DNA of 64,000 nt from Myxococcota bacterium. GTDB taxonomy: Bacteria > Myxococcota_A > UBA9042 > PHBI01 > JAWLBL01. The notes beneath the pieces were generated by a model. The model was not told the origin of the DNA. It ran no database searches and saw nothing but the letters and a program-made list of their open reading frames with translations. A program made the position numbers and the translations under genes. The stretch is taken from NCBI GenBank assembly GCA_041687695.1, contig JAWLBL010000036.1:1-64000 (forward strand). Reading direction: 5' to 3'. Positions 849 through 32,846 of the stretch are shown here, piece by piece. Each line of letters begins with the position of its first letter. Position 1 is the stretch's first letter.

Positions 849-2495
849 GTGAGGGGGCGGTGGTCGATGGCTGCGCTGGGCGTGCTGTTCGCGTGCGGGG
901 GGGCGGGCGTCGTGCCACCGAGGGCGACCGAGGAGGGAGCCGTCGCGGCGGCCGTGAGTGAAGCGGTGGAGGAAGACACACGGGCATGGGTTGATGTCGG
1001 GCTTACGGCCGAGCCGCTCGGGGCGACCTGGTTCGGCCTGGGGATTGAGGAATTGGTAGAGGGAGAGTGGGAGGCAGCTCGTGAGCTGTTTGAGAAGTCG
1101 TGTGCAAGCGATGCGGAACCCGCTGGGGCGTGTGTCCTTCTGGCGGAGACGCTGTTGTGGTTGGGAGCCGCGGAGGACTCGGCTGAGATTCAGGCGCTGT
1201 TGGGGCGGACGCTGGAGCGGCGTCAAGCGGAATGCGTGGCTGGGAACCAGGGGGCATGTGCGTCGCTGGCGTACCAGCTCATCACGGGACGGGGGGCGCC
1301 GCGGGACGTCACTCGGGCGTACGGGCTTCTGGAGGGGGCCTGCACGTCCGAGGGCGAAGGGTGCTTGTGGCTCGTAGAGGCGACGCAGGCGGTGGGGGCG
1401 CTAGAGGGGCTCGAGGAGAGGTCGCGCAAGTGGCTGGAGGTGGGGTGCGAGGTCGGGCAGGACGGCGAGGCGTGTCGAGAGCTGGGGTGGAGCCTGCTGC
1501 TCGGGGCCGGCGGAGCGCGCGAGGTGGGTCGCGCAGGGGCGCTTTGGAAGCAGGGCTGCGAGGACGAGGACGTGTACGCCTGTCGCCATCTGGCTGACTA
1601 TCATCGGTTCGGCCTGGGGGGGCGGGTGGACGTCGAGCGGGCGCGCGCCGTGGAGGCGGAGCGCGAGCGGTTGCTGACCGAGTGGTGCGAGTGGGGAGGC
1701 CTGGCGCCCTGCATGGAGCTGGCTCAAATGCGGCTGCGAACGGGCGGCGAGTCCGCCCCGGGCGAGGCGCGAGCGCGTTTGGCTCAGGTCTGTGCGTCGG
1801 GGCTGGGTGACGCCTGCGAAGTGCTCGCCGAGGCCGAGGAGCGGAATGCCGGGGGGGATGGCGAGCCGGGGGCCGCGGGCGAGTGGCGCGCGCGGGGGTT
1901 GGAGGTGCATCGGAGGCATTGTGCGTCGTGGAAGCCGGTGGACTGCGAGCCAGTGGCGCGGCTGCTGCGGGACAGCGAGCCGGCGCGAGCGTTGGAGTTG
2001 TACCGGCGGGCGTGCGAGGCGGGGCATGCGCCGTCCTGCTTCGAGGCCGCGCGGCTCGGGGGCGCGGACGAGGCGGCGTTGCGCGAGGCCGCGACCCGCG
2101 CGTGTCTGGCCGGTGAGACCATGGGGTGCGAGGCGCTGGGGCGAGGCCTGCTGAAGTCGAAGGAGGTCGACGAGCGGACGGCGGGGTACCGATGGCTGGA
2201 GGTCGCGTGTCTGAGGGGCTCGGTCGGGGCGTGTCTGGATGCGTGGGAGCAGCGCCGTAGGCCCGCGGAGGCGCGTCTGTCGCGGGGCGAGCTTGGCCTG
2301 GTGACGGTCGCTCAGGGGCTGGACGCGTGCTCGAGCGAGGTGGGGCCCCACTGCAAGCGGCTGGGACAGGCGTTGGCGAGGGGGAAGCGTACCGGGTTGG
2401 ACGAGGCCTGCCGGGCAGTCGCTGGTGAGGCGTGCGCGCGGGTCGCCAGGCGGCCCGAAGTGCGGGCGTGGATGAGCGGGGCGCGCAGCAAGTAG
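849..2495 (+). CDS. Sel1-like repeat (Cys-rich, Hcp-like) lipoprotein
   Basis: Lipobox-like LFAC; repeated A...C..G....C..L modules (e.g. ARELFEKSC, ACASLAYQLITGRGAPRD, ALELYRRACEAGHAPSC); start uncertain (849/867). Confidence 0.8.
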   Translation: MRGRWSMAALGVLFACGGAGVVPPRATEEGAVAAAVSEAVEEDTRAWVDVGLTAEPLGATWFGLGIEELVEGEWEAARELFEKSCASDAEPAGACVLLAETLLWLGAAEDSAEIQALLGRTLERRQAECVAGNQGACASLAYQLITGRGAPRDVTRAYGLLEGACTSEGEGCLWLVEATQAVGALEGLEERSRKWLEVGCEVGQDGEACRELGWSLLLGAGGAREVGRAGALWKQGCEDEDVYACRHLADYHRFGLGGRVDVERARAVEAERERLLTEWCEWGGLAPCMELAQMRLRTGGESAPGEARARLAQVCASGLGDACEVLAEAEERNAGGDGEPGAAGEWRARGLEVHRRHCASWKPVDCEPVARLLRDSEPARALELYRRACEAGHAPSCFEAARLGGADEAALREAATRACLAGETMGCEALGRGLLKSKEVDERTAGYRWLEVACLRGSVGACLDAWEQRRRPAEARLSRGELGLVTVAQGLDACSSEVGPHCKRLGQALARGKRTGLDEACRAVAGEACARVARRPEVRAWMSGARSK

Positions 2496-2690
2496 GCACG
2501 GGCGGCAGCGAGCGGCGCGGCCCGGCGAGCGGGCACCAGCGCGTGCCATGTGCGGCGCTCGACACAGGGGGGAGTTTGATGCTGAGGTTCGCTGACTCTC
2601 GACGGCGGCTGGAGCGGGCGGCGGTGGCGCACTTCGAGAAGTGCGGGCACGCGACGCAGGGCAACGGGTACATCCTGAAGCGGTACGTGA

Positions 2691-3059
2691 CTAATCGGCG
2701 AGATCGAAGCCGGGGCGGCCGTCGATGAAGGTGGCGAGGGCGAGGATGGCGCCGGCGCCGGTGGCGACGAGGCGGGTGACGGGGCCGAGGGCAGTGAGGG
2801 CGTCGGGGGGCGTCGCCGAGGGGGGCGTTCCAGTCGCGGGCGGCGTCAGGGGGGGGCGTCGCCGAGGGGGGCGTTCCAGTCGCGGGCGGCGTCGGTGAGG
2901 ACGGCGGCGAGGGGGCGCGGGTCCGGGCCGGCGCGGAACCAGGCGGGGGCTTCGGCGCAGGGGACGCCGGGCCAGTCGGCGGCGCGGGGGGGCGTCGTCG
3001 GGGAGGCCGGTGAGGGCGAAGACGGGTGTTCCGCTCGTGGACCCGACCCGTTGGCGCAC
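2691..3059 (-). pseudogene. frameshifted gene fragment containing a ~46-bp tandem duplication
   Basis: Protein-like text (GTPVFALTGLPDDAP/AADWPGVPCAEAPAWFRAGP...DAARDWNAPLGDAP/DALTALGPVTRLVATGAGAILALATFIDGRPGFDLAD*) is split across frames at poly-G runs. Confidence 0.35.
2805..2893. repeat. direct tandem duplication, 2 copies
   Basis: GGGGGGCGTCGCCGAGGGGGGCGTTCCAGTCGCGGGCGGCGTC at 2805-2847 and 2851-2893. Confidence 0.85.
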
Positions 3060-3167
3060 AGCTGTCTACGGCAACGACTGCGGTGAGCAGGCGTGTTGCG
3101 CGGAGCGCATGATGGGGCATCATCGCGAGGCTTGGGTGGACGAGCGGTGGGGACGAGGGGGGGCGGG

Positions 3168-4613
3168 ATGGTCGAGGACGAGGGGGCGGCGTCGGTCGGC
3201 GAGGGGGTGACGCCTTCAGATGGGGCGGCTTCTGAGGCGTCGGTGCCTACGGCTCGAGTGGACCCGGTGACGAGCGGGGCGAGGACGGGTCCGGGTGGGG
3301 CGCACTGGCTCGCGAGGATCGTGCTGGGGCTGGCGCTTCTGGCGGCGGCGCTGGTGCTCGCGTTGCCGTTGACGCTGCTGCTCGCAGCGGGGGTGGCCGA
3401 GCAGCTGGAGGGGCTGTTGGGGGCCGTGCTGGCGCAAACGGGAGGGCTCGAGGACGAGGTGTTCTCGACCGCGTGGCGGGGGACGGGCACGGCGGTCGCG
3501 GCGGCGGCGCTGCTGCATGTGCTGGCCCGGATGTTTGAGTGGCCGAAGCCTCGGGAACGTGGAGCGCCGCGGGAACATGGGGCCGTGTCGTTCGCGCGGT
3601 TCGCGCTGCGGCATCCGCTGGTGGTGCTGGCGCTGCCGCTCGTGGTGCTGACCAGCCTGGTGCCGTTTGAGCTGACGGACAATCCGGCGCTGCCGGACGT
3701 GCTGTCGGCGACCGGAGTCGTGGGGCTCTACCACTTGGGTCTTGCGGGGCTGCTGATTGGCTGCGGGACGCTGGTGTTTCTGTTGGCGCGGCTGCTGTAC
3801 CGGGCCGGCGCGCGGTTGCCGTTCGTGGGTGGGGCGCTGACCGTGGTGGCGGCCGGTGGGGCGTGGGCGTTCATCGGGAACGCTGTCGAGGGCCTCGAGC
3901 GCCGCCGGGACGACCTGATCGAGCCGCCGCGGCTGGCGCTGCTGCTGCCGAGCGACGCGGCGCGGGACGAGCTGGCGATCGAGGCCGGGGAGTTCGGCGG
4001 GCTGGGCGGACTGGGGTCGCGGCGCGCCGAAGACGTTGTGGTCGCGAGCGTCGGACGCGCACGAGAGGCGGAGCCGGCCGAACGGCTGGCCGAGCTGGCG
4101 ACGAAGCGGTGCCTGGAAGAGCTGGGCCCGGCCAAGCGCACGACGACGGCGTTCGACCGGGCGACTCGCTACCTGGCGCGCGGCTTCCGGATGGACCTGG
4201 AGGACGCGCACGATCTGGCGATGAAGGCGCTCATCGACGTGTGCGCGGCCGAGGGACGCACGCGCTTCGACAATCCGGCTGGCGCCTTCATGACCGCCGC
4301 GAAGAACCTGGCCATCAAGCGTTTCAAGCGAGGGCGCTACCAGGCGACCTACGCGACCACGGTCCAGGCCTGCGCCTTCCTGGAGCTCGAGGAGGTCCGC
4401 CTCGACGTCGAGGTGCCCGTCATCCGCGCGCTCATCGAGAGCCTCCCGGCCGACGACCAGTCCGCCCTGTACATGTGGGCCCGGGACTACGACCACAAAG
4501 AGATCGCGGCCGAGCTGGGCATCACCAGTCGGAGGTCGCGGGACATGATCGGCAACACCCTGAAGCGCCTCCGCAAGGCCGTCGAAAACGCCTGTCAGAA
4601 CGCGCCCTTGTAG
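3168..4613 (+). CDS. multi-pass membrane protein fused to a C-terminal ECF-like sigma-70 (regions 2 and 4)
   Basis: About 5 hydrophobic segments in the N-terminal half; C-terminus DLEDAHDLAMKALIDV...AFMTAAKNLAIKRFKR (region 2) and IESLPADDQSALYMWARDYDHKEIAAELGITSRRSRDMIGNTLKRLRK (region 4 HTH). Confidence 0.75.
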   Translation: MVEDEGAASVGEGVTPSDGAASEASVPTARVDPVTSGARTGPGGAHWLARIVLGLALLAAALVLALPLTLLLAAGVAEQLEGLLGAVLAQTGGLEDEVFSTAWRGTGTAVAAAALLHVLARMFEWPKPRERGAPREHGAVSFARFALRHPLVVLALPLVVLTSLVPFELTDNPALPDVLSATGVVGLYHLGLAGLLIGCGTLVFLLARLLYRAGARLPFVGGALTVVAAGGAWAFIGNAVEGLERRRDDLIEPPRLALLLPSDAARDELAIEAGEFGGLGGLGSRRAEDVVVASVGRAREAEPAERLAELATKRCLEELGPAKRTTTAFDRATRYLARGFRMDLEDAHDLAMKALIDVCAAEGRTRFDNPAGAFMTAAKNLAIKRFKRGRYQATYATTVQACAFLELEEVRLDVEVPVIRALIESLPADDQSALYMWARDYDHKEIAAELGITSRRSRDMIGNTLKRLRKAVENACQNAPL

Positions 4614-4718
4614 AAAGTCGCAGAAAAACGACGTCCACCTCTACGCAAAACGTCGCCTCACGGCTCGTAGGTTCAGAGCGGCAGGGAGCCGCTCCGGACC
4701 ACGAACCCGGAGAGCACG

Positions 4719-5102
4719 ATGTGCAAGCGAGATGAGGCGGGCGCCGCGCGCGGTCGCCACAGACGTGAACAGGCCCTGGCCCGAGGGACCTCGGCCGCGC
4801 GGGACTCCGAACACGCGGTCGAGCGCGCGTCGGAGCGAGGCATCGACGACGAGGCGGTCGCGGTCGCGCTGAAGTTCGGTGATGCCATCCCGCAGGCGCA
4901 TCACCGGACGGCGTACTTCGTCAGCGCCGCGGCCGTCGTGCGCGCCGCGCGCGTTGGCGACGACATCGGCCACTTCATGAACGTCGCCGTCGTCGTCGCC
5001 CCGGACGGCACGATCGTCACGGTCGTCCGCTCGAGCGAGGAGCGCATGCGCGGCTGGAAGCCCTCGAAGTCGCGGCGCAGCCACAAGCGGAGGGCGTCGT
5101 GA
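4719..5102 (+). CDS. DUF4258-like small protein
   Basis: SEHAVERASERGI motif and C-terminal VVVAPDGTIVTV strand typical of DUF4258; GGAGAG RBS upstream. Confidence 0.65.
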   Translation: MCKRDEAGAARGRHRREQALARGTSAARDSEHAVERASERGIDDEAVAVALKFGDAIPQAHHRTAYFVSAAAVVRAARVGDDIGHFMNVAVVVAPDGTIVTVVRSSEERMRGWKPSKSRRSHKRRAS

Positions 5103-5200
5103 CCTCGATGAGACCCGAACTGTCAGGTGGGGCCTCGACCGCGCCTGAAAGGGGTGCGTCACGCATCCAGACGAACACCATCTCGCGCCAGGAGCGCCCC

Positions 5201-6544
5201 GTGAACCGCTCCGTCATCCTGGTCGACCTGTACTGGACCCGGGACAAGGACCCGCGGGTGCCCCTCGGCCACGCCTCGCTGCTCGCCGCGCTCCGTGCGG
5301 TACCCGGACTCGAGGTCCACTCCGTCGTCGTCGCCGTCAACGACGGCCTCGCCAGCCCCGAGCGCGTCGTGGACGCCATCGTGGCCTGTGCCTCGGGCCG
5401 ACCCGGATGCGAGGTCGACGTCGCCTTCGGCGCCTACGTCTGGGGCGAGGACCTTCTCCGCGCCGTGCTGGCCGGCTTGCGCCTCAGAGGCTTCCGCGGG
5501 CGCATCATCCTGGGTGGACCGCAGGTCTCGTACAGCGGCGCCGGGCTCGAGGCGCTGTACCCCGAGGCGGACGCCTTCGTGCGCGGCTACGGCGAGGAGG
5601 CCCTTGCCAGCCTCGCGCGCAGTGCCGACCGCCTCGCCATCCCCGGCGTCCATTGGGCCGGCACCCCGGACCGGCTCGACCAGGCCAGCGTCGACCTCGA
5701 ACGGCTGCCGTCGCCATGGCTCACGGGTCTCATCCCGCTGGACGGCCAAGCCTTCATCCGCTGGGAGACGCAACGCGGGTGCCCCTTCCGTTGCGCCTTC
5801 TGCCAGCACCGCGAGCCGGGCGCCCGCCTGCACCACCGCGAACTGAGCAAGCCTCGCATCGCCGCCGAGATAGACCTCTTCTGCCGTCACGGCGTCCGCG
5901 AGATCGCCGTGCTGGACCCCATCTTCAACGCGTCGCGCAACGCGGTGGCAGTCCTGGAGCGTTTCGCCCGAAACGGCTTCGACGGTCGCCTGTCGCTGCA
6001 GTGCCGCGCCGAGATGCTCGACGAAGCCTTCCTCGACGCGGCAGCCGCCCTGAACGTCAACCTCGAGTTCGGCTTGCAGACGATCCACCCGGACGAGGGC
6101 AAGGCCGTCAGGCGCGGCAACAACATCGCCAAGGTCGACCGAGCGCTCGCCGAGGTCCGACGGCGCGGCCTCGACCACGAGGTCTCACTCATCTTCGGGC
6201 TGCCCCTGCAGACCCTGGCCTCCTTCCGAGAGACGGTCGCATGGTGCCTCGACCGCCGCGTCCCGGTCATCAAGGCCTTTCCCCTACTCCTGCTGCGCGG
6301 AACGGCCCTCGACCGCGACCGCACCCAGTGGGGCCTCATCACCCAGGGCGGCTCGATGCCCGCGGTCGTCGCCTCCACCAGCTTCGACCGCGCCGACCAC
6401 GAGGCCATGGCCCGCCTCTCCGAGGCCCTGAGAGCCACCGAAGGCCACCACCCCCGTCACCTCGCAGACCTGGAACGGCTGGCCGCCACCCTCGCGCCCA
6501 CCCGCACCCGCTTCCAACCCCCCACCCAGCGAGAAGCCGCATGA
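5201..6544 (+). CDS. cobalamin (B12)-binding radical SAM protein
   Basis: N-terminal B12-binding-type Rossmann motifs (PLGHASLLAAL, AFGAYVW, IILGGPQVS, FVRGYGE) and CxxxCxxC in ETQRGCPFRCAFC; GLQT and LIFGLP motifs; GTG start with AGGAG RBS. Confidence 0.9.
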   Translation: MNRSVILVDLYWTRDKDPRVPLGHASLLAALRAVPGLEVHSVVVAVNDGLASPERVVDAIVACASGRPGCEVDVAFGAYVWGEDLLRAVLAGLRLRGFRGRIILGGPQVSYSGAGLEALYPEADAFVRGYGEEALASLARSADRLAIPGVHWAGTPDRLDQASVDLERLPSPWLTGLIPLDGQAFIRWETQRGCPFRCAFCQHREPGARLHHRELSKPRIAAEIDLFCRHGVREIAVLDPIFNASRNAVAVLERFARNGFDGRLSLQCRAEMLDEAFLDAAAALNVNLEFGLQTIHPDEGKAVRRGNNIAKVDRALAEVRRRGLDHEVSLIFGLPLQTLASFRETVAWCLDRRVPVIKAFPLLLLRGTALDRDRTQWGLITQGGSMPAVVASTSFDRADHEAMARLSEALRATEGHHPRHLADLERLAATLAPTRTRFQPPTQREAA

Positions 6545-7155
6545 ACCACCTCGACACCGACCGCGCGCCCCTCTTCATCGCCTTCGAGGGCCTCGACGGC
6601 TCGGGCAAGAGCACCTGCGCCCGCCTGGTCGCCGAACGCCTGGGCGCCGTCTTCATGACCACCCCCTCGCCCGAGGTCCGCGCCTACCGCGACGACCTCA
6701 TCGCCTCGTTCGACGGCTGCCAGGAGGCCTGCCAGCTCTTCTACCTCTCGACCGTGTTCGCCGCCTCCCAGACCATCCGCACCCACCTGGCCGCCGGCCG
6801 CTCGGTCGTCATCGACCGCTACTTCCTCTCGACGCAGGCCTACGCCGCCTTCCGCGGTTCGCGCCTGACCATCGACTCCGTCGAGTCGCTGCTCGTCCCG
6901 GCCCACGCCACGGTCTACCTCGAAGCCCCGCTCGCCGTCCGCCGCGAGCGCCTCCGCCAACGCGGCACCTCCCACGCCGATCGCGAGACCCTGGCCGAGG
7001 CGGCCGATGCCGCCCTGCGCACTGAGCACGTCCGACGCGCCTACCTCGACGTAGTCGGCCGCTTCATCACCGTCGACACCAGCGCCGCCGACCCCGATGC
7101 CCTCGCCGAGCAGGTCGTCGCCGAGCTCCGCTCGATCGGCTGGCGCGCGGCCTGA
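6541..7155 (+). CDS. thymidylate-kinase-family nucleotide kinase, CMPK2-like
   Basis: P-loop FIAFEGLDGSGKST, VVIDRYFLST motif, lid RRERLRQRG; ATGA overlap with the radical SAM stop; has MTTP where housekeeping Tmk has T-R-E-P. Confidence 0.85.
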   Translation: MNHLDTDRAPLFIAFEGLDGSGKSTCARLVAERLGAVFMTTPSPEVRAYRDDLIASFDGCQEACQLFYLSTVFAASQTIRTHLAAGRSVVIDRYFLSTQAYAAFRGSRLTIDSVESLLVPAHATVYLEAPLAVRRERLRQRGTSHADRETLAEAADAALRTEHVRRAYLDVVGRFITVDTSAADPDALAEQVVAELRSIGWRAA

Positions 7156-7179
7156 TCCGACCGGTGCTCGCCCCCATCG

Positions 7180-7212
7180 ACCAAGGGCCGTGTCCATCGC
7201 GGCCTTTGGTTT
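7180..7212 (+). terminator. hairpin, probable intrinsic terminator after the kinase
   Basis: ACCAAGGGCCGTG-loop-CGCGGCCTTTGGT stem followed by only a short T tract. Confidence 0.45.
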
Positions 7213-7304
7213 CGCCGCACCGCAAGAGATCGACCTGGCAGCGGTTGATTGCGGTTGCAAGCTCGCGATAGCGTACCAGCTCCATCACCCGCTGAGGATC
7301 TCCG

Positions 7305-8072
7305 GTGCGACTGCCATCGCATGACGATCACGCGCTCGTGTCCTCGCCTCCTGCCGAGGAGCTTGCCGCCTGGAGCGAGCTCGTCCGCGTCCTCCTCCAC
7401 CGGAACCTGATCCGATACGCCGAACGTCCCTACGACTCGTCCGGCCGGGCGGACGACTCGTTCGTTTCGCACCGCGAGGTCGCTCACATCCTGTCGCCCG
7501 CGCCGCGCCCCGAGATTGCAGCCATCGATCAGGCGCTCGCGTCGATATGGTCCCGGCTCACTGAACTCGATCGCGCCGAGGCCCCACCGGCCTCGCGGCC
7601 GCTCGCTTAACTTGCCGTCCGCCTCGGCCTCACCCCCGCCGAACGCGACCTCGTCGCCGTCCTCGCGGCCTTGCAGACGCAGACCGAATTCTGGCGTCTC
7701 GCCCGCCACGCGTGGGCGGACTTCACAGTGCAGCAGCCGACGGTTGGGTTCCTCGCTGACCTGCTCGGCTCGCCCCCTCTCGAGCGACGCTCCGTGCTGG
7801 ACGCCTTCGACGGTCCTCTGGTTCGACTCGGGCTCATAAGCCTGGCCAGCGCTCGGTCCTTCGACGGCCCCACGCCGCTTGCGCAGAAGCGAGTCCACCT
7901 CATTGACTCGTTGGCCGCGCACCTCGAAGGGCGCAATGGAGCCACGACGCCTAAAGCTCGGGTCGAGCATGAAGTGCTGGTCGAGCTGCCGTCTCGGATG
8001 CGTATCGCAGGGCGTCTGCGCGAAGCCCTCCGGGCCGCGGCAAGGCGGCCGACTCCCAAGATCGTCGGTGCA
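7305..8072 (+). pseudogene. truncated N-terminal winged-helix region of an AAA ATPase (type found in eCIS loci)
   Basis: ORFs 7305-7610 and 7671- are in the same frame separated by one TAA; RLGLTPAERDLVAVLAA, PTVGFLADLL, GPLVRLGLI motifs; ends at the hairpin at 8073 before any Walker A. Confidence 0.6.
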
Positions 8073-8137
8073 GGGGTCAAGCCTTGCCATTTTCCACTTC
8101 ACGGCGTCGAATATGGACCATGGCTAGGCCTGACGCC
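8073..8137. mobile_element. REP-like palindromic mini-element
   Basis: GGGGTCAAGCCTTGCCAT (8073-8090) pairs imperfectly with ATGGCTAGGCCTGACGCC (8120-8137); resembles the GGGGTCAxGyCTTG ends seen flanking RAYT-type tyrosine transposases. Confidence 0.65.
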
Positions 8138-8422
8138 GAAGCTCCGGGTGGGGCTGAAGGCGGGCTCGGGGCCGGTCCAGACGAGCTCGGCGCGGGGGCG
8201 GTGGGCGCGGCGTTCGGCGAGCGCGGCCTGCAGGACGGGGGCGAGGGCCTCGGGCGGTAGATCGGCGAGCGCTGCGGCGACGGCCTTGTGGTCGATGGCG
8301 AGCCCGGCGGCGGCGAGGCGCCCCGCGGTGAGGTGGGCCGCGAGGAGGCCGCGATCCAGGGCCTTGGCCACGGCTTCGAGGTCGTGAGTGGATAGGTGAC
8401 TCAGGTCGGCGCACTTCGGCAT
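8138..8422 (-). pseudogene. drmC: N-terminal fragment of a DISARM DrmC-like phospholipase D protein
   Basis: Helical N-terminus ending in ELVWTGPEPAFSPTR, the conserved DrmC motif; cut off by the hairpin before any HKD motif. Confidence 0.6.
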
Positions 8423-8668
8423 GGGCCCCCCCTGCCCTCCCCCACGCGGAATGGGCTCGCGAACTCGCGTTGGTCGGGAGCCTGCCCGAGAGCAGGTCGG
8501 GGTGCAGCCGGTGCAGGCGGACTGAACACCTCTTCGCCTTCGGGGCCCTGGGAGTCCGGGGGCTGCGGACGTCGGGCATGCTCGGCGCCTCGGTTACAAC
8601 CGAAACCAGGCAGGTCGACTTGTCGGGCCGGCGATTCTACAGCATGATGGCCGAACCCGGAGCACGCC

Positions 8669-10759
8669 ATGACAGACCAGCACTCGAAACGGGATCCCGA
8701 CCGCGTCGCAGCTCATGCACGTCATGATCAGCCAGTGCCACCGCGCAGCGCAGGCTACTCGCTCGGCCTCGAGCACAAGATCCTGCAACTGCGAGAGGCG
8801 CTATGGGCGTATCCCGGGTTCCCGGAGGTCATGGCGAGGCTCGAGGCCAAGGCTGCTGCGAACGACCCGATGGACGGCGCTACGCAGAGCCACGACCCTC
8901 CGGTCGGGGAGTCCGTTCAACTCAAAGCGGCTGGGCGCAGGGATCAGGACATTCACGCAACTGCGTCGTACGGCGTCTCCGATGGCGGCGGACGATTGCC
9001 CCACCTCGATCGCATCCAGTCAGCTTTCGGGCATCACGACGTCAGCGGCATCCAGGCCCACATCGGTGGGCGCGCCGCGCAGGCTTCCGAGGCCATCGGA
9101 GCCCAAGCATACGCGACGGGCGCACATGTAGCCTTCCGTTCGGCCCCGGACTTGCACACCGCCGCACATGAGGCGGCCCATGTCGTCCAGCAGAGGCAAG
9201 GGGTGCACCTGAGCGGAGGCGTAGGCCAGGCAGGTGACCGCTACGAACAGCACGCCGACGCCGTCGCTGATCGGGTCTTGCAAGGAGAGTCCGCATCCGA
9301 ACTTCTGGACTCTGTCGCTGGCGGGAAGTTGGGCTCTCAGGGAGCAGCCATCCAACTCGAGGAAGACGAGTGCCCGAATCCGGTGAGCGTTGTGGTAGCG
9401 ACTTCCACGGTTCGGAAGTACATCCGGGAGGCTCGGAACGCTATCGCCGCTGGTGGAAGGGCCGTTGAATTGCTTAGAGATTACGTCGAGATAGCTGCCT
9501 CATACGCCGCCGGTGTGATGACCCAGGAACAACTAGCTCAAGCCGGCCATCGCGAGCTGGCTGCTGCCCTCGCTTCCGAGAAGCGGGATGCGCTGATTGG
9601 ACAGTTCACAAGTCTGGCGCTATGCCTCCCGTCGGGCATCTCCGCATTGACTGCGGCAGTCAAGGCCATTCGTTCACAGACGATGGCTGCAGCATTGCGC
9701 CAGGCGCGAACCGCACTCGCGACGACGGGCGGTCTCGAAGGAACTGCAGACCTGGGCGAAGTCGTCGTCAATGCGCGAGAGACAGCGGGAGCCGCAGGCA
9801 GCCAGTCCGGGTTCGATGACGCGGTCCTTCGCAACATACAGCGTCTCGATGCGCGCCTGAGCTTTACCGAGGGGGTCTTGAAAGCTCTCATCCTGCACAG
9901 CATCCAAGGACAGGTAAACATCTTGAGAGATAGCCTGTTCGCGATCGTCCCAACGAATTTTTTGGCCGTCCAGGAGGCCGTTGATTCAGCGAACACCTGC
10001 AACGCATATACGGGTGCTCAGTTTGATGAACTGGCAGCCGAGCAGGCACAGGTGATCGAGCAGCTGGTGTCTGTAGGAGAGGTGGCTCGGAGGTTCATGC
10101 TGTTCGCGGAGGGCTTTCGGCTAACTGGCGCCTCTGGCGATCTGGCGCAGTCCAATGCCGGGAGCAATCCGAACCGCGACTTCTTCGACTTCTTGACCGA
10201 GTTGGACATCAAGGGCGCAACTTCGCACCTGACTGCAACCATCACCCGTGATGTCGAGGTCTCCGGCACAACAGCCCTGGGCATGATGGCGTTCGCGAAC
10301 CTGACGGTTCACCGCTGCAGCTTCGACCTGATGGGGCTCGAAGCCGCAGCGGCCAAAGCCGGGCTCGAGGTACCTGAGACGCTGCCCGCTTCGACCGATG
10401 GCGCCATCCCGCCGCAGCCCGGGGCCGTTCGACTCGATGCAGGAGTCGGTCGGACTCTGATTCAGTTCGCCGGAGGAGGGGTGCAGTGGCGTATGCGCTT
10501 CATCTTCGAAGGGACACCCGTGGTGATTCCCCTCTTCCCGGACTCCGATTGGTACCTGTCGGGGGACTTTCTGGCTCTCGCTCGAAGCCGACTTGCTTCC
10601 AGTTGGGGGACGTATCCGAACGCCCATCGTTGGCACCTCTACGACGCACGACAGGGGCGAGCGCTCGTCGTCGACACGCGTCGGCATACAATTTCGGCAT
10701 ACCCCGATGAGGGCGGAGAGCCTCCTGGATTGAACCCTGATGAGGCTGTGGCGAAGTGA
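8669..10759 (+). CDS. DUF4157 (eCIS core, HExxH) domain protein with an unknown C-terminal region
   Basis: [22 protein letters not shown]...[13 protein letters not shown]...[14 protein letters not shown]...[10 protein letters not shown]; visibly lower GC than flanks. Confidence 0.85.
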
Positions 10760-11562
10760 ACTCCGAGAATTTGGTTTGGGACGCGACCGTTGCCGACAAA
10801 GCACCACATCGGACCCGTCGCTCGGCTGTGTTGCTCAACTTGCTGACCCTGATTGTGGGTTCGGTGGCGCTCGCGCGAACGGCCGCGAGCACGGATCGGT
10901 TGCAGGTTGTGAATGCCGATGGAGGCGGTCGTGGCGAGCTGTCGGTCGATGCCAGGTCGGTGCAGCTCGTGCTCGAGAGCGCGAGTGGGGACTCGGCCGT
11001 GCAGGTCGTCGTGCGTGAGGGCGGCGGGGTTCACGTGTTCGTGGGAGGCGAAGGCGCGCCCTTCATCGGCGTCGGGGCCCATCGCGGGATCAACACCATG
11101 GTCGTGGCGGTCGACGGCGGCGGGGGCGCCGGGCTGATGATGTCGCACCTCATCTCGACCCTCTCGTTGAAGAGCGCGTCCGATACTCTGACCTCGCTCA
11201 TTGTCGCGCCCGAAGCGGCTCAACTCAAGCTGAATGGCTCCGTCGGGCCTGACGATCTCGGCATGAGTCTCCAGGTCGCCGAGGACCGGGCGGGGCTGGA
11301 GTCGCTCGGCCGGGATAGCGCGTCGTTGATTGTGAACGACGGGGCGAGTGAACTCGGCCTCGGCCGCGGGACGACCGCTGGCAGCTTGTCGGTCACTGAC
11401 CGCTGTTCGGTGCTCATGGCGATTCGCCAGCCCATTGATGCGGTGCGACGCCTTCTCCTCATCGATGACCCGACCGAGCAGAGCGTTCTGCCAGACGACA
11501 CCCTGATCGGGGAGCGGCCGCGCTCCGAGTTGCCGAACCGTTCCGCAGTGGAGCCGCCATGA
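10756..11562 (+). CDS. hypothetical membrane-anchored beta-rich protein
   Basis: GTGA overlap with DUF4157 stop; one N-terminal hydrophobic segment followed by short alternating beta-strand repeats. Confidence 0.6.
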
Positions 11563-12356
11563 ACGCATCTCCCTCAGCTTCGGACTCCGATGTGCGTGCG
11601 CAGCTGGCCCGAAAGGAAGGCCGCTCCGGCTTTCCCTGGCTCAGCCTGTTGGGTCTGGCCATCGCTATCGTAGCGCTCGTCCGCGCGTTCGACGAAGCAC
11701 GCCCTCTACGCGTGACCGACGGCAATGGGATCATCCGCGCCTCACTCCAGGTCGAGGACGCGACCGTCGCGCTCGTCTTGCGTGACGGCTCCGGAAAGGT
11801 CCGCGCGCGCCTTGCCGTGGACGAGGCCGGACCAGCGCAGCTCAGCTTGTTGGGAGAAGACGGCGCCGACGAAGTGAGCCTCTCGACGGCCTCAGGACGG
11901 GCCAGTCTGCGAGTCGTCTCGGCCGAAAACACGCTAGAGATCCAGGCGACCGAGTCCGGCTCGCACCTTCGAGTGTCCAGCGAGAGCACGAGCGCCGTCG
12001 TGGCCAGCAGTCCGTTGGTCAGTCAGGTCATTCTGACGGGGCCGGGACAGCGGGATGAGCCCTCCAGGCTGACCCTCGAGTCCGTGTCCCAGGGCACCAG
12101 ACTCGACATGTCGGTCGGGGGCGATTCCGCTGCCTTGTCGGTCAGCCCCGAACGGTCGCAACTCAGCCTCGGCAATGGGCAGCGGTCAGCGCGCCTGTTC
12201 ACCGAGCCCGCTGGCTCCGTTCTTCGCTTCGAAAGCCCAGTGCCCGACCTCGACAATCAGGTCGTCCTGACAACCCGGCCGGGCGAGCGCTCGCGCCTGC
12301 CGCGGACGACGCATCTGGGTGAAAGCTCCGTAAGCAGAACGCCAGCGACGCCTTGA
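11559..12356 (+). CDS. hypothetical membrane-anchored beta-rich protein (likely paralogue of the previous gene)
   Basis: ATGA overlap; TM segment then LRVTDGNGIIRASL / LVLRDGSGKVRARL repeats, similar to [14 protein letters not shown] upstream; similar GERxRLP-type C-terminal tail. Confidence 0.65.
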   Translation: MNASPSASDSDVRAQLARKEGRSGFPWLSLLGLAIAIVALVRAFDEARPLRVTDGNGIIRASLQVEDATVALVLRDGSGKVRARLAVDEAGPAQLSLLGEDGADEVSLSTASGRASLRVVSAENTLEIQATESGSHLRVSSESTSAVVASSPLVSQVILTGPGQRDEPSRLTLESVSQGTRLDMSVGGDSAALSVSPERSQLSLGNGQRSARLFTEPAGSVLRFESPVPDLDNQVVLTTRPGERSRLPRTTHLGESSVSRTPATP

Positions 12357-28170: not shown

Positions 28171-28557
28171 TCAGTGAGCGGGCCGAGCCTTCGACCGAAA
28201 CTGCACGCCTGGGAGGCCGTCGAAGTCTGCGTCCTGGGTCCAGAGTTCGGCGTCGTGGGCTCGAGCCGTGGCGAGGACGATGCTGTCGGCCAGGGGGAGG
28301 CGGTGGGCGAGGCCGAGTCGAGCGGCCGAGAGGGACAGCTCGGCGGTGAGCTCGACGATGCGCCCCTGATGCATGGCGGTGACGGCCGTCAGGGCGTCGG
28401 TTTCGCCGCGCTGGCTCGCGATGCGGCGGTAGACCTCATAGATCGTGATCGACGGGACGACGAGCAACGCCACGTCTTCGATGGCCGGAGCGAACAAGGA
28501 CGCGTTGGGCCCATCGGCGAAGTATTCGAGCCAGGCCGAGGAGTCGATGACGTTCAC
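28171..28557 (-). CDS. vapC: VapC-family PIN toxin
   Basis: VIDSSAWLEYF, TIYEV, LPLADSIVLATA, LWTQDADF. Confidence 0.92.
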   Translation of the reverse strand: MNVIDSSAWLEYFADGPNASLFAPAIEDVALLVVPSITIYEVYRRIASQRGETDALTAVTAMHQGRIVELTAELSLSAARLGLAHRLPLADSIVLATARAHDAELWTQDADFDGLPGVQFRSKARPAH

Positions 28558-28790
28558 TCGCGGTCGTCCTCTCGCGGGACATCGGTGTCGAGCCCGGGCA
28601 GAAAGCCCCGTAGCTCGCGCATGGGGACGATGGGGACGAGCTCGATGCGGCCGCCGATGACCAGGGCCTGGAGCTTCTGGCCGGGCCGGATTCCGAGGGC
28701 TTCGCGCACGCGCCGAGGGAGGACGACCTGGTACTTGGAAGAGACCGTCAGGGTCTCGGACGCGGTAGGGATCGATCCGGGCTTCGTCAT
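28554..28790 (-). CDS. AbrB/MazE/SpoVT-family antitoxin
   Basis: TVSSKYQVVLPRRVREALGIRPGQKL; GTGA overlap with vapC. Confidence 0.9.
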   Translation of the reverse strand: MTKPGSIPTASETLTVSSKYQVVLPRRVREALGIRPGQKLQALVIGGRIELVPIVPMRELRGFLPGLDTDVPREDDRE

Positions 28791-28838
28791 ACGGGGAGGG
28801 TATCGATGGGATGTGGGTAGGTCAACGTGCGGTGAGCC

Positions 28839-28911
28839 GAGCGCTCGGGGCGCCGCGAGCGGGGTGGGGCTGGGGAGCCCCAGCGAGCGGGGGCACTCCA
28901 ATGGGGCGCGG
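28839..28911. repeat. dispersed ~75-bp intergenic repeat, copy B
   Basis: Matches 25543-25617. Confidence 0.7.
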
Positions 28912-28930
28912 AGCGAGGGCGAGGCGGCGG

Positions 28931-31900
28931 TCAGGGCTCGGCGACGAGGCGGCGGGCGTCGGTGAGGGCGGAGGCCGCGAGGTCGGGGGGGATGGAAGGG
29001 GACTGGGAGAGGGCGTGGGTGCGCAGGAGGGTGGTGGCGAGGTCGGGGGTGATGTGGCCCGAGGGGAGGAGGTCGGAGTAGAGCCAGACGGCGAGGCTCG
29101 AGCGGTCGGGCAGGGTGGACTGGCCGGCGCGGTGGGCCAGGGCGGCGGTCATGGCGGTGGTGAGGAGGTCGAGGGCCTCGGTGGGGTGGTCGGGGAGGAG
29201 GGCCTCGGCGGCGTGGAGCTTGCGGCGGGCGAGCGCGGCGAGCGGGGGCTCGGTCTGGGGGGCGGTGGGGCGGGACCAGGCCTCGCGGGTCTGGGCGAAG
29301 GCGGCGCCGGCGACGCGGGTGAGGGCGGCCCAGGTGCGGCCGTCGAGGACCGCGACCGGGATGGGGCCGGCGAGGGCCTCGGCCTGGGCGACGAGGTCGG
29401 GGGTGGCGACGTCGATCAGGGCGACGAGGCCGGCCTGGGTGACGAGGAGGCGCTCGAGGTGGGCGCCGAGGACCTCTTGCAGGGCCTGGACGAGGGGGGC
29501 GAGGGACTCGTCCGGGGCCTCTGGGGGCTCGGGCGAGAGCGGGGCGACCAGGGTGTCGTCGACCGCCGGGGCGGGATCGAGGGTCGGGATCGCCACGGCT
29601 GGCGGGTCGTCCGACTCGCCGCCCGGGTGCGGGGCCGGGGTGTCGCCGAGGGCCTCGAGGGCGACCGCGAGGGCGCGGGGGGAGAGGCCGACGACGTCGT
29701 CGGTCGCCTCGGGCTCGACGGCCGCGGTGAAGAGGTCGCGCTTGGTGGCGATGAGGGCGGCGACGCGCTCTTCGTACGACTCGGCGGCGACGAGGTGGAT
29801 GATCTGGACCGGCTCGCGCTGGCCGAGGCGGTGGATGCGGGCGATGCGCTGGCCGAGGGTGGCCGGGTTGTACGGCAGCTCGAGATTGACCAAGACCGTG
29901 GCACATTGGAGGTTGAGGCCCGTGGCGCCGGCGTCGGTCGAGAGGAAGACCTGGCACTCGGGGTCGTCGTGGAAGCGGCCGATGAGGGCGCCGCGAGCGC
30001 TGGTCGGGACGCCGCCGTGCAGGCGGGCGACGCCCAGGTTCAGCGAGCGCGCGACCTCTTCGGCCATGTGGGTCATGCGCTCCCACTGCGAGAAGACGAC
30101 GATCTTCTTGCCGCCGTCGACGCAGACCTCTTCGAGGATGCGGGCCAGCTCGTCGAGCTTGGGCGAGCCGACGGTCTCCTTGTCGACGAGGCCGGCGGCG
30201 TTGCAGGCCATGCGGGCGGTCTGCAGGGCGCTCAGGAGCAGCTTCTCTTCGATGGGGGTGAGGGGACGGCGGAGCTGGATCTGTTGGTATTGCTGGGCGG
30301 TCTGCAGGGCGGCGTTGTGCAGGGTGCGCTGCTTGGCGCTGAGGGCGATCTCGATGCGCTGCTCGATCTTGTCGGGGAGCTGGTCGCGGACCAGGCGCTT
30401 GTCGCGGCGCAGCATGACGGGCGCGAGGCGGCGGCGCAGCTCGGAGAGGTTGCGGTAGCCGAGGGCCTTGCCGCGCTCGTCGGTGACGTGGAAATGGGCC
30501 ATGAACTGCCAGAGCGGCCCGAGGACGCGCGGGTCGACCACCTGCATGACGCTGTAGAGGTCTTCGAGGCGGTTTTCGAGCGGGGTGCCGGTCAGGACGA
30601 AGGCGTAGCGGCTGGGGATGGCCTTGACGGCGCTGGCGGTGCGGGTGCGCCAGTTCTTGATGCGCTGGGCCTCGTCGAGGATGACGAGATCGGGGGCGAG
30701 GTCGTTGGCGATGGCCTCGCGGTCGCGGAGGACCAGCTCGTAGTTGACCAGGGTGAAGGCGGGGCGGCGGCGATATTGGGCCAGGCGCGGGGCGACGCCG
30801 CCCTGGACGATCTCGGCGTCGAGGCCGGTGAAGCGTTGGATCTCGCGGGCCCACTGGAACTTGAGGGAGGCGGGGCAGACGATGAGGGTGTGGGCGACGC
30901 CTTCGCGGTCCATCAGGGTGCGGGCGGCGGCGATGGCCTGCAGGGTCTTGCCGAGGCCCATGTCGTCGGCGAGGAGGGCGCGGCCGGTGGCGGCGAGGAA
31001 GGCGACGCCCTCGACCTGGTAGGGGTACAGGCGCGCGCGGACGCCGGGGAGGTGGCCGCCGGAGCGGAGGATGTCGTCGCGCAGCGAGCGGGCGCGGGCG
31101 GCGTGGGCAAGGTCTTCGGCGAGGCGGCGGGCGTGGGCGGCGGCGTCTTCGGCGATGTGGACGTCGGGGAGGAGTGCCAAGGCGCGCTCGGCGTGGAAGA
31201 AGGCGTCGGGGAGGGAGCCGCGGAGGGCGCCGCGGGCGTCGAAGTGGCGGTCGAGGGCGGCGGCGGTGGCGGGGGCGAGGGGGTCCTGCCGGTGGACGCG
31301 GATCTCGGGTCCGTGGGCGGCGTCCCAGGCGACGTAGACGACGGAGGGACGGGTGTCGGCGGCCTTGGCGTCGCCCTTGCGGCGGCCCCCCTTGGCGAGC
31401 TTGTGGAGGACGGCCTCGATGTGCTTGCAGGTGCCGAGGCGGTTGGTGGCGAAGTCGGGGCAGGAGCAGGCGTTCATGCGCTGGGTGCGCGAGCGGATGT
31501 GGACCGTGTAGGGACGCAGCGACGCGCCGCTGGGGGCGAGCGAGCGGGCGGACCAGGTGCCGAAGTCGACGGCGCCGGCGACGTGCTCGACGATGACCTC
31601 GGTGCGGGCGCGTTGGACGCGCTCCGCGATGGCCTGCTCGGCGGCGCTGGCGGCGTGGCCGTCACCCGCCGCGTGGCGCGCGGCGTAGGCGGCGAGGACG
31701 GCGATGCCGTGCTTGCAGGACGGCTCGAGGTCGGCCTCCCACTCGGCGCAGCCGCAGGTGATGGTCAGCTCTCCCTCGCCGCGGCCGATCTCGACCAGGT
31801 ACGGCAGGCCGAGTTGGGAGCCCTCGACGTGGGCCCACACGCGCTCGGCGTCCCAGCCGAGGTCGGTCACGCGGTGCTCGGCGTAGTAGGCGAGGCCGCG

Positions 31901-31990
31901 CTGGACGACGGCCTCGGAGGCGAGGGCACGCAGCGCCTCGGAGTCCAACAGGAACGGGTCCGCCCGAACGCCCTCGACCGCCGCCGCCAT
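28931..31990 (-). CDS. SNF2-family helicase with two SWIM zinc fingers
   Basis: CGC...CKH and CSC...CKH SWIM motifs; ADDMGLGKT, DEAQ, LTGTPLEN, STDAGATGLNLQ, QRIARIHRLGQ. Confidence 0.93.
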   Translation of the reverse strand: MAAAVEGVRADPFLLDSEALRALASEAVVQRGLAYYAEHRVTDLGWDAERVWAHVEGSQLGLPYLVEIGRGEGELTITCGCAEWEADLEPSCKHGIAVLAAYAARHAAGDGHAASAAEQAIAERVQRARTEVIVEHVAGAVDFGTWSARSLAPSGASLRPYTVHIRSRTQRMNACSCPDFATNRLGTCKHIEAVLHKLAKGGRRKGDAKAADTRPSVVYVAWDAAHGPEIRVHRQDPLAPATAAALDRHFDARGALRGSLPDAFFHAERALALLPDVHIAEDAAAHARRLAEDLAHAARARSLRDDILRSGGHLPGVRARLYPYQVEGVAFLAATGRALLADDMGLGKTLQAIAAARTLMDREGVAHTLIVCPASLKFQWAREIQRFTGLDAEIVQGGVAPRLAQYRRRPAFTLVNYELVLRDREAIANDLAPDLVILDEAQRIKNWRTRTASAVKAIPSRYAFVLTGTPLENRLEDLYSVMQVVDPRVLGPLWQFMAHFHVTDERGKALGYRNLSELRRRLAPVMLRRDKRLVRDQLPDKIEQRIEIALSAKQRTLHNAALQTAQQYQQIQLRRPLTPIEEKLLLSALQTARMACNAAGLVDKETVGSPKLDELARILEEVCVDGGKKIVVFSQWERMTHMAEEVARSLNLGVARLHGGVPTSARGALIGRFHDDPECQVFLSTDAGATGLNLQCATVLVNLELPYNPATLGQRIARIHRLGQREPVQIIHLVAAESYEERVAALIATKRDLFTAAVEPEATDDVVGLSPRALAVALEALGDTPAPHPGGESDDPPAVAIPTLDPAPAVDDTLVAPLSPEPPEAPDESLAPLVQALQEVLGAHLERLLVTQAGLVALIDVATPDLVAQAEALAGPIPVAVLDGRTWAALTRVAGAAFAQTREAWSRPTAPQTEPPLAALARRKLHAAEALLPDHPTEALDLLTTAMTAALAHRAGQSTLPDRSSLAVWLYSDLLPSGHITPDLATTLLRTHALSQSPSIPPDLAASALTDARRLVAEP

Positions 31991-32095
31991 CGCCGCCCTC
32001 CCCTGCCCTGCGCGGGCCTCGTCGACGGCGGGATTCGTAACATGGGTGCGGGGTTGGGGCTATGGGTTCGGAAGGAGCCCGCACGGCCCATGCGT

Positions 32096-32512
32096 TCAGA
32101 TGGGTAGGCCGAGCTCCCGGGCCGCCTGGATCTGCGCCAGGTCTCGGCTGACGAAGCGCTTCAGTGGATCGCGGTCGTGGAACCAGCGAGCCGTGCGGAG
32201 GTGCACGAGATCCAGGGACCGGGGGGTGCTGACGACGGGCATCAGGTCGGATCGACAGAGGTCGAGGGTCAGGTCCCGCAGCTCGAACGTCTCCATGTCG
32301 TGGGCGAGGCGCTCGAGAGCGTCCTGCAGCTCGGACGGAGACAGGATGGACTGGCGCGCCAACCGGACCAGGTTCCGTTGCGCCTCGAGCACCAGGAGCG
32401 AACTCGACACGAGGACCTGCTCCCTGAGTTCGTCTCGGAGCTGGGCGCCGCCCGGCTCGTCGAGCAGGGTCGCCAGGTAGGCGGAGGTGTCGAGATAGCA
32501 CCTACCGGTCAT
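32096..32512 (-). CDS. vapC: VapC-family PIN toxin
   Basis: YLDTSAYL, VLEA, RSLDLVHLRTA, FVSRD. Confidence 0.88.
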   Translation of the reverse strand: MTGRCYLDTSAYLATLLDEPGGAQLRDELREQVLVSSSLLVLEAQRNLVRLARQSILSPSELQDALERLAHDMETFELRDLTLDLCRSDLMPVVSTPRSLDLVHLRTARWFHDRDPLKRFVSRDLAQIQAARELGLPI

Positions 32513-32747
32513 CCGCGCGATCCTCCGCGAGGGCGTCGCTCAGACCGGGACGGCCCTTCAGGCCCGGCAAGGGGGCCAGATCGGCCTGGCCGACCCTCTC
32601 GCCGACGTGGACGGAATCGGGCGCAGCGGGCAACAGCTGAGCGACGGGGCGGCGGTGCCTGGTGATCACGATGCGCTCGCCCTGCGAGGCTGCGTCGACG
32701 AGGGCCGCGAGGTTTCGCTTCAGGTCATGGATGGGAACCGTTCTCAT
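32502..32747 (-). CDS. Phd/YefM-family antitoxin
   Basis: MRTVPIHDLKRNLAALVDAASQGERIVITRHRRPVAQL; overlaps the toxin start. Confidence 0.9.
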   Translation of the reverse strand: MRTVPIHDLKRNLAALVDAASQGERIVITRHRRPVAQLLPAAPDSVHVGERVGQADLAPLPGLKGRPGLSDALAEDRADDR

Positions 32748-32763
32748 GGAGATATGGTACCAA
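32748..32763 (-). promoter_or_regulatory. extended -10 (TGGTACCAT) 6 nt before ATG, overlapping the palindrome TGGTACCA (candidate antitoxin operator)
   Basis: TACCAT-N6-ATG on the minus strand; 8-bp perfect palindrome at 32756-32763. Confidence 0.5.
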
Positions 32764-32846
32764 CACCGGGGCTGAACGCAATCACCCCACACGGCTTCAG
32801 TCGTCCCCCGCTTCCAAGGGGGCGCGAGGTCGAGTAGGGTTCGCGC

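Follow-up and report, generated by a model that had tools for sequence, protein, structure and literature searches.

We analyzed a 64,000-nucleotide stretch of DNA (the window) from a Myxococcota bacterium (assembly GCA_041687695.1, contig JAWLBL010000036.1, positions 1 to 64,000), in which a radical S-adenosylmethionine (SAM) gene with a cobalamin-type N-terminal domain is followed directly by a thymidylate-kinase-family gene (Table 1). The stop codon of the first overlaps the start codon of the second as ATGA, and both the open reading frames and the Pfam families bear out an earlier note, made from the sequence alone, that had described a translationally coupled B12 radical SAM and kinase pair. 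That note caught the pair and overlooked two genes upstream of it (DUF4258 and sigma-like), as well as the match of the pair to PADLOC. The two proteins match the PADLOC profiles PDC-M51A and PDC-M51B near full length, from adjacent genes in the same order. The pair is thus already catalogued as the defense candidate PDC-M51, a computational listing made by guilt-by-embedding, and we call its products M51A and M51B. The module is real, conserved and uncharacterized. We read it, with a probability of roughly 0.55, as an accessory antiviral module that makes a methylated or rearranged nucleotide, viperin-like in its working without being a viperin.

Table 1. Features at and around the M51A-M51B pair (positions in the window).
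Feature	Positions	Strand	Remarks
Cobalamin radical SAM gene (PDC-M51A)	5201-6544	+	447 aa; GTG start; homologue starts align at that start
TMPK-fold kinase gene (PDC-M51B)	6541-7155	+	204 aa
RNA hairpin, 14-bp stem, no U-tract	7179-7211	+	3' of the kinase stop codon
DUF4258 gene	4719-5102	+	Predicted RNase toxin, BECR/RelE fold; upstream of the pair
Membrane-anchored sigma-70/ECF-like gene (ECF, extracytoplasmic function)	3168-4613	+	3 hydrophobic segments; C-terminal sigma region 4
drmC fragment	8099-8422	-	NF038319 E 2.7e-9, profile positions 3-94 of 236; PADLOC DrmC E 1e-13

M51A contains a Radical_SAM domain (Pfam, E 1.4e-19) preceded by a B12-binding domain whose Pfam match (E 1.4e-5, 25.4 bits) lies below the 32.1 cut-off. 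It matches PDC-M51A over profile positions 4-416 of 420 (E 2.5e-146). The closest solved sequences in a profile search were CysS (E 3.4e-35) and TokK (E 9.4e-34), which also took the top Foldseek ranks for the AlphaFold model of M51A (pLDDT 92). Structural Z scores were 27.9 for MgmA, 27.5 for AprD4, 26.3 for CysS, 24.7 for TokK, 23.2 for OxsB and 15.2 for viperin. No viperin model (NF038283/TIGR04278 or PADLOC pVip) was matched at E 0.01, and none of the 20 NCBIfam matches was a viperin; true viperins at the compared loci score 204-280 bits on NF038283. On these matches, M51A is a TokK/CysS-type cobalamin radical SAM enzyme and, as the earlier note had argued, not a viperin.

The N-terminal Rossmann domain of M51A (residues ~1-145) resembles cobalamin-binding domains. 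Across 117 diverse sequences, the cluster motif CxxxCxxC (C194/C198/C201) is 100% conserved. Y79 and W81 align with TokK Y74 and W76, and W81 is 96% conserved in the same set; the GG motif (G105, 92%; G106, 97%) and E132 (97%; part of the GE formed by G131-E132 in the window protein) are retained as well. Membership of the TokK subclass is described, in passages of PMC9204698, by the motif A-x-S-x-Y-x-W with a Trp beneath the cobalt. The Ser of this motif is Gly in M51A (G77; the column is 69% G and 28% S), and the position of TokK W215 is held by His203 (H 83%, Y 9%, F 5%). Because the core motifs are conserved while these two contacts differ, cobalamin binding by M51A is likely rather than proven. 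Methyl transfer is predicted from the same motifs. The host genome also encodes a cobalamin-dependent MetH.

The kinase has a Thymidylate_kin domain (Pfam, E 2.7e-16) and a TMPK fold (Foldseek TM 0.74). It matches PDC-M51B (E 1.5e-56, positions 3-175 of 191) and VakA (E 1.8e-18), and its score on TIGR00041 (60.3 bits) falls below the 83.25 cut-off for housekeeping Tmk. The P-loop, the D-R-Y motif and the LID arginines are invariant across 15 kinase homologues. Most aligned housekeeping Tmks carry (T/S)REP, or a variant with a final EP, at a site where this kinase has T-T-P, so the reported lack of a T-R-E-P motif holds. Furthermore, an F/Y-x-x-x-R motif follows the base-stacking aromatic in 12 of 12 Tmks, and the M51B kinases have T, S or V there; the arginine of this motif is presumably the residue that reads thymine, and its absence from M51B suggests a non-thymidylate substrate. 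Near the base-binding helix, viperin kinases carry an N at a position that is T, S or V in the M51B kinases. The host genome encodes a full-scoring tmk elsewhere, on contig C38 (162 bits), and a separate tmk was likewise present in 10 of 10 other genomes checked.

Phylogeny points the same way. A careful tree was built from 42 of the 85 rows of a quick tree, with viral and redundant rows excluded. It separated 15 M51B, 8 viperin-linked and 7 GreA-operon kinases from 12 Tmks with 100/100 support; animal CMPK2 is unrepresented, so that viperin-linked kinases and eukaryote-like kinase-viperin fusions stand as proxies for 'CMPK2-like'. Forcing M51B together with Tmk was rejected (p-AU 0.0098), and the 85-row tree concurs (SH-aLRT 96). 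The 8 viperin-linked kinases form a subclade of their own (100/99), with the window kinase outside it. By this placement, the kinase belongs to the viperin-associated clade and is not a housekeeping Tmk, which upholds what had been proposed from its motifs.

Kinases of this clade keep varied company. Among 30 loci inspected in a sample of 401 genomes of the host phylum, 13 lay beside M51A, 13 beside a GreA-like gene and 3 next to a viperin gene or fused with one; 1 was cut by a contig end. The VakA profile had no match at E 1e-14 in 401 genomes of the class to which genome G417 belongs (8 candidates scored per genome). Clade kinases were also observed fused to a PhyH dioxygenase and, in either order, to viperin (P0125; P0126-P0128, P0131-P0137; L221:1414-2874). 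A separate four-gene operon encodes a GreA-like factor with a lengthened acidic tip, an M51B-clade kinase, a MoaA-like radical SAM protein and a second P-loop protein (for example, L263:2633-5308, L264:3153-5905 and L265:2332-5052). In PADLOC, its radical SAM protein gives weak viperin-model matches and its GreA-like gene none. This operon is a candidate third nucleotide-modifying system, in which the GreA-like factor possibly clears analogues from the host RNA polymerase.

Conservation was assessed over 39 genome loci, 80 metagenome loci and 5 relatives, reduced to 94 representatives at 90% identity. The kinase lies directly downstream of M51A in 24 of the 73 representatives with sufficient downstream DNA (20 of 40 high-GC, 3 of 13 mid-GC and 1 of 20 low-GC loci). 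Addition of the phylum-sample loci gave 110 non-redundant loci, 69 of them with both flanks (the window counted). The kinase is present at 27 of these 69 loci (one a weak 33-bit fragment), a GreA-like gene at 1 and a same-strand DUF4258-like gene within 1.2 kb at 18. Ten of these 18 loci had seeded the DUF4258-like profile; at the non-seed loci the gene still occurs at 8 of 59, against 2 matches in the 8-Mb host genome (0.02 expected, with related genomes non-independent). DUF4258 is treated as a BECR-fold toxin family, activity not described, in the relevant part of PMC11980606. The window protein scores 25.8 bits on Pfam PF14076 (cut-off 25, partial cover), homologues at other loci match down to E 2.7e-9, and RNase activity is predicted for it. 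No antitoxin gene adjoins the DUF4258 gene in the window.

These partners resemble the company of viperins. A kinase accompanies 12% of bacterial viperins (10.1101/2023.09.13.557418, in part), and HicA and RelE genes are found on the flanks of prokaryotic viperins (10.1101/2023.12.08.570793, likewise in part). A Pseudomonas strain carries the order WYL, function-unassigned gene, ankyrin, HicA-like, M51A, M51B, WYL (L039:3181-12060), with its HicA-like gene matched by PADLOC at E 1.9e-25. At another locus, a viperin gene lies ~0.9 kb upstream of M51A (L073), and at a third, a GreA-like gene lies immediately 5' of M51A-M51B (L257). Other neighbors were observed as well. Three loci (L071:6571-7992, L085:2-1030, L088:3060-4493) encode a 475-aa protein with an N-terminal XRE-like helix-turn-helix, coupled just 5' of M51A-M51B-DUF4258, and the first of these blocks sits in an integrative-element-like region near drmD. 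Five loci (L034, L037, L044, L064 and L068) have a divergent Ser/Thr protein kinase gene, an ECF sigma gene or both just 5' of M51A.

On this basis, the favored antiviral module might work as follows. M51A would hold a [4Fe-4S] cluster, SAM and base-off cobalamin, for which it has the motifs, and would take a hydrogen from a sugar carbon within a nucleotide. That carbon would then most likely be methylated from methylcobalamin, or the ring rearranged as by OxsB; both options are suggested by the TokK-type motifs and the OxsB precedent. Viral polymerases would be stalled or poisoned by the product, a nucleotide analogue. The kinase, whose family and clade are established, may serve as an optional booster, either by providing the substrate or by phosphorylating the analogue, and the DUF4258 protein, found in recurrent association, as an optional RNase back-up like HicA and RelE beside viperins. 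The dedicated kinase is what argues for a nucleotide substrate, and the viperin-like company together with the PADLOC listing argues for an antiviral effect. Note that the 145 PDC systems were themselves predicted, from genes that lie within BREX, DISARM or type I restriction-modification loci, as set out in parts of Payne et al. 2024 (10.1101/2024.01.29.577857). 'M51' is absent from the main text of that paper, in which 'SAM' and 'dNK' in the legend of Figure 6E may denote the M51 system. A full-text literature search returned 'PDC-M51' in no paper, and by title and abstract start no paper characterizing the system was found, with subscription papers and bioRxiv supplements outside the scope. 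Anti-phage activity of PDC-M51 is to be read as predicted, PDC entries being included as predictions to be studied later.

Several findings weigh against this reading, and defense context is the first of them. The earlier note had expected the pair to be enriched near defense genes, citing a drmC remnant and a defense island in the window. We scored two genes on each side of 93 of the 94 representative loci (251 genes; PADLOC at E 1e-15) against a control drawn solely from the host genome (20 random 10-kb regions, 143 of their 171 genes), which leaves the non-host lineages unmatched. Matches occurred in 23 of 251 neighbors and 11 of 143 control genes (p=0.71). Post hoc removal of generic kinase, AAA, helicase and desulfurase matches left 11 of 251 and 2 of 143 (p=0.15), and per locus, with generic matches removed, 9 of 93 and 1 of 20 (p=0.69). 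The expected enrichment thus failed to appear; the remnant and a complete Wadjet type II system do exist, the latter ~26 kb from the pair. Not counted in this comparison are nine hand-picked genes farther out, of which three match DrmD-type helicases. According to portions of 10.1101/2024.01.29.577857, other defense systems are found less often in the vicinity of embedded candidates, so the null result weakens the defense reading without refuting it. The same null would suit an accessory enzyme outside defense, for cofactor, lipid or salvage tailoring, whose gene moves from one insertion hot spot to another, with partners reflecting shared regulation or hitch-hiking, as would the low-GC marine loci, where M51A stands alone beside housekeeping genes. 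We consider this highly improbable: distant lineages repeatedly show translational coupling to kinase and small RNase-fold genes, and the neighbors of M51A include no recurrent metabolic gene family.

Partner genes are the second point. The kinase is missing from 42 of the 69 loci, and 35 have no kinase, DUF4258-like or GreA-like gene at all. The conserved core is therefore the radical SAM enzyme, with optional partners, and of the conserved pair that had been anticipated, the tight M51A-M51B coupling stands, recurring across phyla, while strict pairing does not. Loci where M51A is alone would also fit an enzyme whose methylation target is a macromolecule (protein of the host or of a phage, tRNA or DNA) and which acts as a conflict-module toxin or modifier, with the kinase and RNase as co-regulated helpers. 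MgmA, the top full-length structural match by Z, is a protein methylator (AprD4 is tied with it), and in one small genome a methylpurine-DNA glycosylase gene overlaps the M51A stop codon as ATGA (L041:9341-9862). We nevertheless consider such a role unlikely, since the glycosylase link is a single case and the commonest coupled partner is a nucleoside monophosphate kinase of a radical-SAM-dedicated clade.

The third point is chemistry. The closest solved relatives act on carbapenem and cystobactamid intermediates, on protein (MgmA) and on an aminoglycoside (AprD4), with OxsB fifth, and both the nucleotide substrate of M51A and a pocket for it are putative. Moreover, one locus (L006:3128-10436) embeds the pair in a tightly coupled, biosynthesis-like cluster. 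Here we observed a NAD-dependent epimerase, a GT4-radical SAM fusion, a PhyH dioxygenase and another repeat-bearing gene, a set that looks like nucleoside or sugar tailoring. That setting would fit a module that acts not through an antiviral triphosphate inside the cell but through a nucleoside antimetabolite, exported to harm competitors or prey. OxsB and AlsB offer the precedent, being cobalamin radical SAM enzymes that remodel deoxyadenosine nucleotides; in the case of OxsB, however, a partner phosphohydrolase prepares the product for export, whereas the M51A partner adds phosphate (for both, sections of PMC13331322). A kinase rather than a phosphatase as partner favors the intracellular triphosphate. 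With no phosphatase or exporter family recurring among M51A neighbors, and the biosynthetic context seen at one locus, we judge an exported product to be quite unlikely.

Cofactor use gives a further, mild point. In one small genome (G418), M51A is the sole match to a B12-binding domain and BtuB has no match, which speaks against strict B12 dependence. Such a genome would suit an M51A that filled the same antiviral role without cobalamin, as an AprD4-like radical dehydratase giving deoxy- or didehydro-nucleotides and so converging on the viperin product type. AprD4, which is not known to use cobalamin, is a full-length match of the same size (Z 27.5, 403 aligned; TM 0.73/0.72), and the two altered TokK contacts (G77 and H203) agree with this view. 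We find it decidedly improbable, given that the N-terminal domain sequence aligns with TokK and CysS and not with AprD4, that W81, GG and E132 are conserved across the 117 sequences, and that the host has MetH. Last among the points against the antiviral module is the hairpin. The stem-loop that the earlier note placed after the kinase is there (region 7150-7240, z -4.59), but it has no U-tract, and scans for terminators (2500-9000) and for sigma-70-type promoters returned 0 sites each; it is thus not a canonical intrinsic terminator.

M51A presence is patchy, a point in favor of an accessory module. The gene occurs in 31 of 401 host-phylum genomes (13 with an adjacent kinase) and, within the class that includes G417, in 6 of 350 (1 with a kinase), both even samples, and homologues are found in Pseudomonas (L039) and Massilia (L038) strains. 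A profile search of 1.84 billion representatives was followed up for the best 150 proteins, down to 273 bits; no fusion of M51A with a kinase or DUF4258 was found among these. Four of 30 looked-up proteins carry eukaryotic names: Tribonema minus, Rhizophagus irregularis, Fimicolochytrium jonesii and Diversispora eburnea, one alga and three early-diverging fungi (P0182, P0226, P0181 and P0173 taken together). They keep the core motifs at 34-38% identity, with two gene models gapped, and the three fungal rows fall within one 6-row clade (SH-like 97, FastTree). These homologues appear to be eukaryotic, unless they stem from contamination. Glomeromycotina keep B12 pathways, as part of PMC8085122 reports. 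A further clade of 29 rows (support 98), nearly all from low-GC metagenome loci, is neighbored by class I LysRS, TFIIB, PAC2 and Trm1 genes and is therefore probably archaeal. Carriage by phages was considered and rejected (no relative in viral contigs; one distant phage match at 22.6%), as was carriage by plasmids (none among plasmids at E 1e-20). In the host genome, no viperin scored over the cut-off.

A wider proposal can be put forward only tentatively, and we regard it as doubtful. M51A could have evolved independently as a second 'viperin', a cobalamin radical enzyme whose product is a natural nucleotide chain terminator, either sugar-methylated or ring-contracted. The enzyme would draw on the same set of components as viperin and the MoaA-like enzyme (CMPK2-type kinases, small RNases, a GreA-like proofreading factor), and its gene, so far unrecognized as antiviral, would have reached archaea, algae and early-diverging fungi. 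Viperin is the model immune enzyme making an antiviral nucleotide. If the proposal is true, a second enzyme class with cobalamin chemistry would bring both a reaction and a natural nucleotide analogue that are new, and the viperin-kinase-RNase layout would be a reusable chassis. The fungal and algal homologues make M51A a candidate for cross-domain immunity, and the gene is small and stands alone in many genomes. The surprise is limited by the fact that the pair itself is already catalogued.

The rest of the locus adds context. The sigma-like protein (Pfam Sigma70_r4_2 E 4.5e-5; NCBIfam TIGR02985 E 4.9e-8) is a probable regulator and an uncommon partner, with a close homologue 5' of the radical SAM gene solely in L017 and L049. 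GC content at third codon positions is low in three of the four genes (0.89 against a median of 0.967), which likewise favors an accessory module, and no Rfam match was found in 2400-8700. Downstream, 7305-8387 (+) holds broken open reading frames with a weak winged-helix match (PF22977, E 4.4e-4), continuing into the drmC fragment; it is probably a decayed gene. The drmC fragment is the N-terminal part, has no phospholipase-D domain and is context outside the module; an intact DISARM system around it was rejected because no full-length DrmC was found in the host genome. Across 8669-12356, where GC content drops to 62-67%, lie an eCIS-core-domain protein gene and two coupled function-unassigned genes. 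Farther on, 28171-40946 holds a VapC-like/AbrB pair, an SNF2 helicase, a Phd-type antitoxin gene and the complete Wadjet type II system (jetABCD, 32847-40946).

Set beside known systems, the module is a member of the PADLOC candidate PDC-M51; its DUF4258 partner in the window has no PADLOC match. M51B shares its fold, P-loop and DR motif with housekeeping Tmk (TIGR00041) and is unlike it in falling in a separate clade and in having no F-x-x-x-R arginine. M51A retains the Y-x-W lower-axial motif, GG, GE and CxxxCxxC of TokK and CysS (PDB 7KDX, 9N1B), but is only ~21% identical, is ~200 residues shorter and has no antibiotic cluster around it in the window. With OxsB/OxsA (oxetanocin A) and AlsB (albucidin), it shares the combination of a cobalamin radical SAM enzyme and a partner that handles nucleotide phosphates. 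OxsB makes an antiviral nucleoside analogue and acts on dAMP, dADP and dATP (PMC13331322, in part). It matches M51A in structure (Z 23.2), yet not in sequence at E 0.001, it has Asn rather than Trp beneath the cobalt, and its partner is an HD phosphohydrolase instead of a kinase. Viperin (pVip/VakA; RSAD2/CMPK2) is a single partial TIM barrel and aligns with M51A at only Z 15.2 and 11% identity, whereas M51A has an extra N-terminal cobalamin domain. The two are nevertheless alike in layout: in each, the radical SAM enzyme is optionally joined by a kinase from one and the same clade and by a neighbor of HicA/RelE fold, and homologues reach into eukaryotes.

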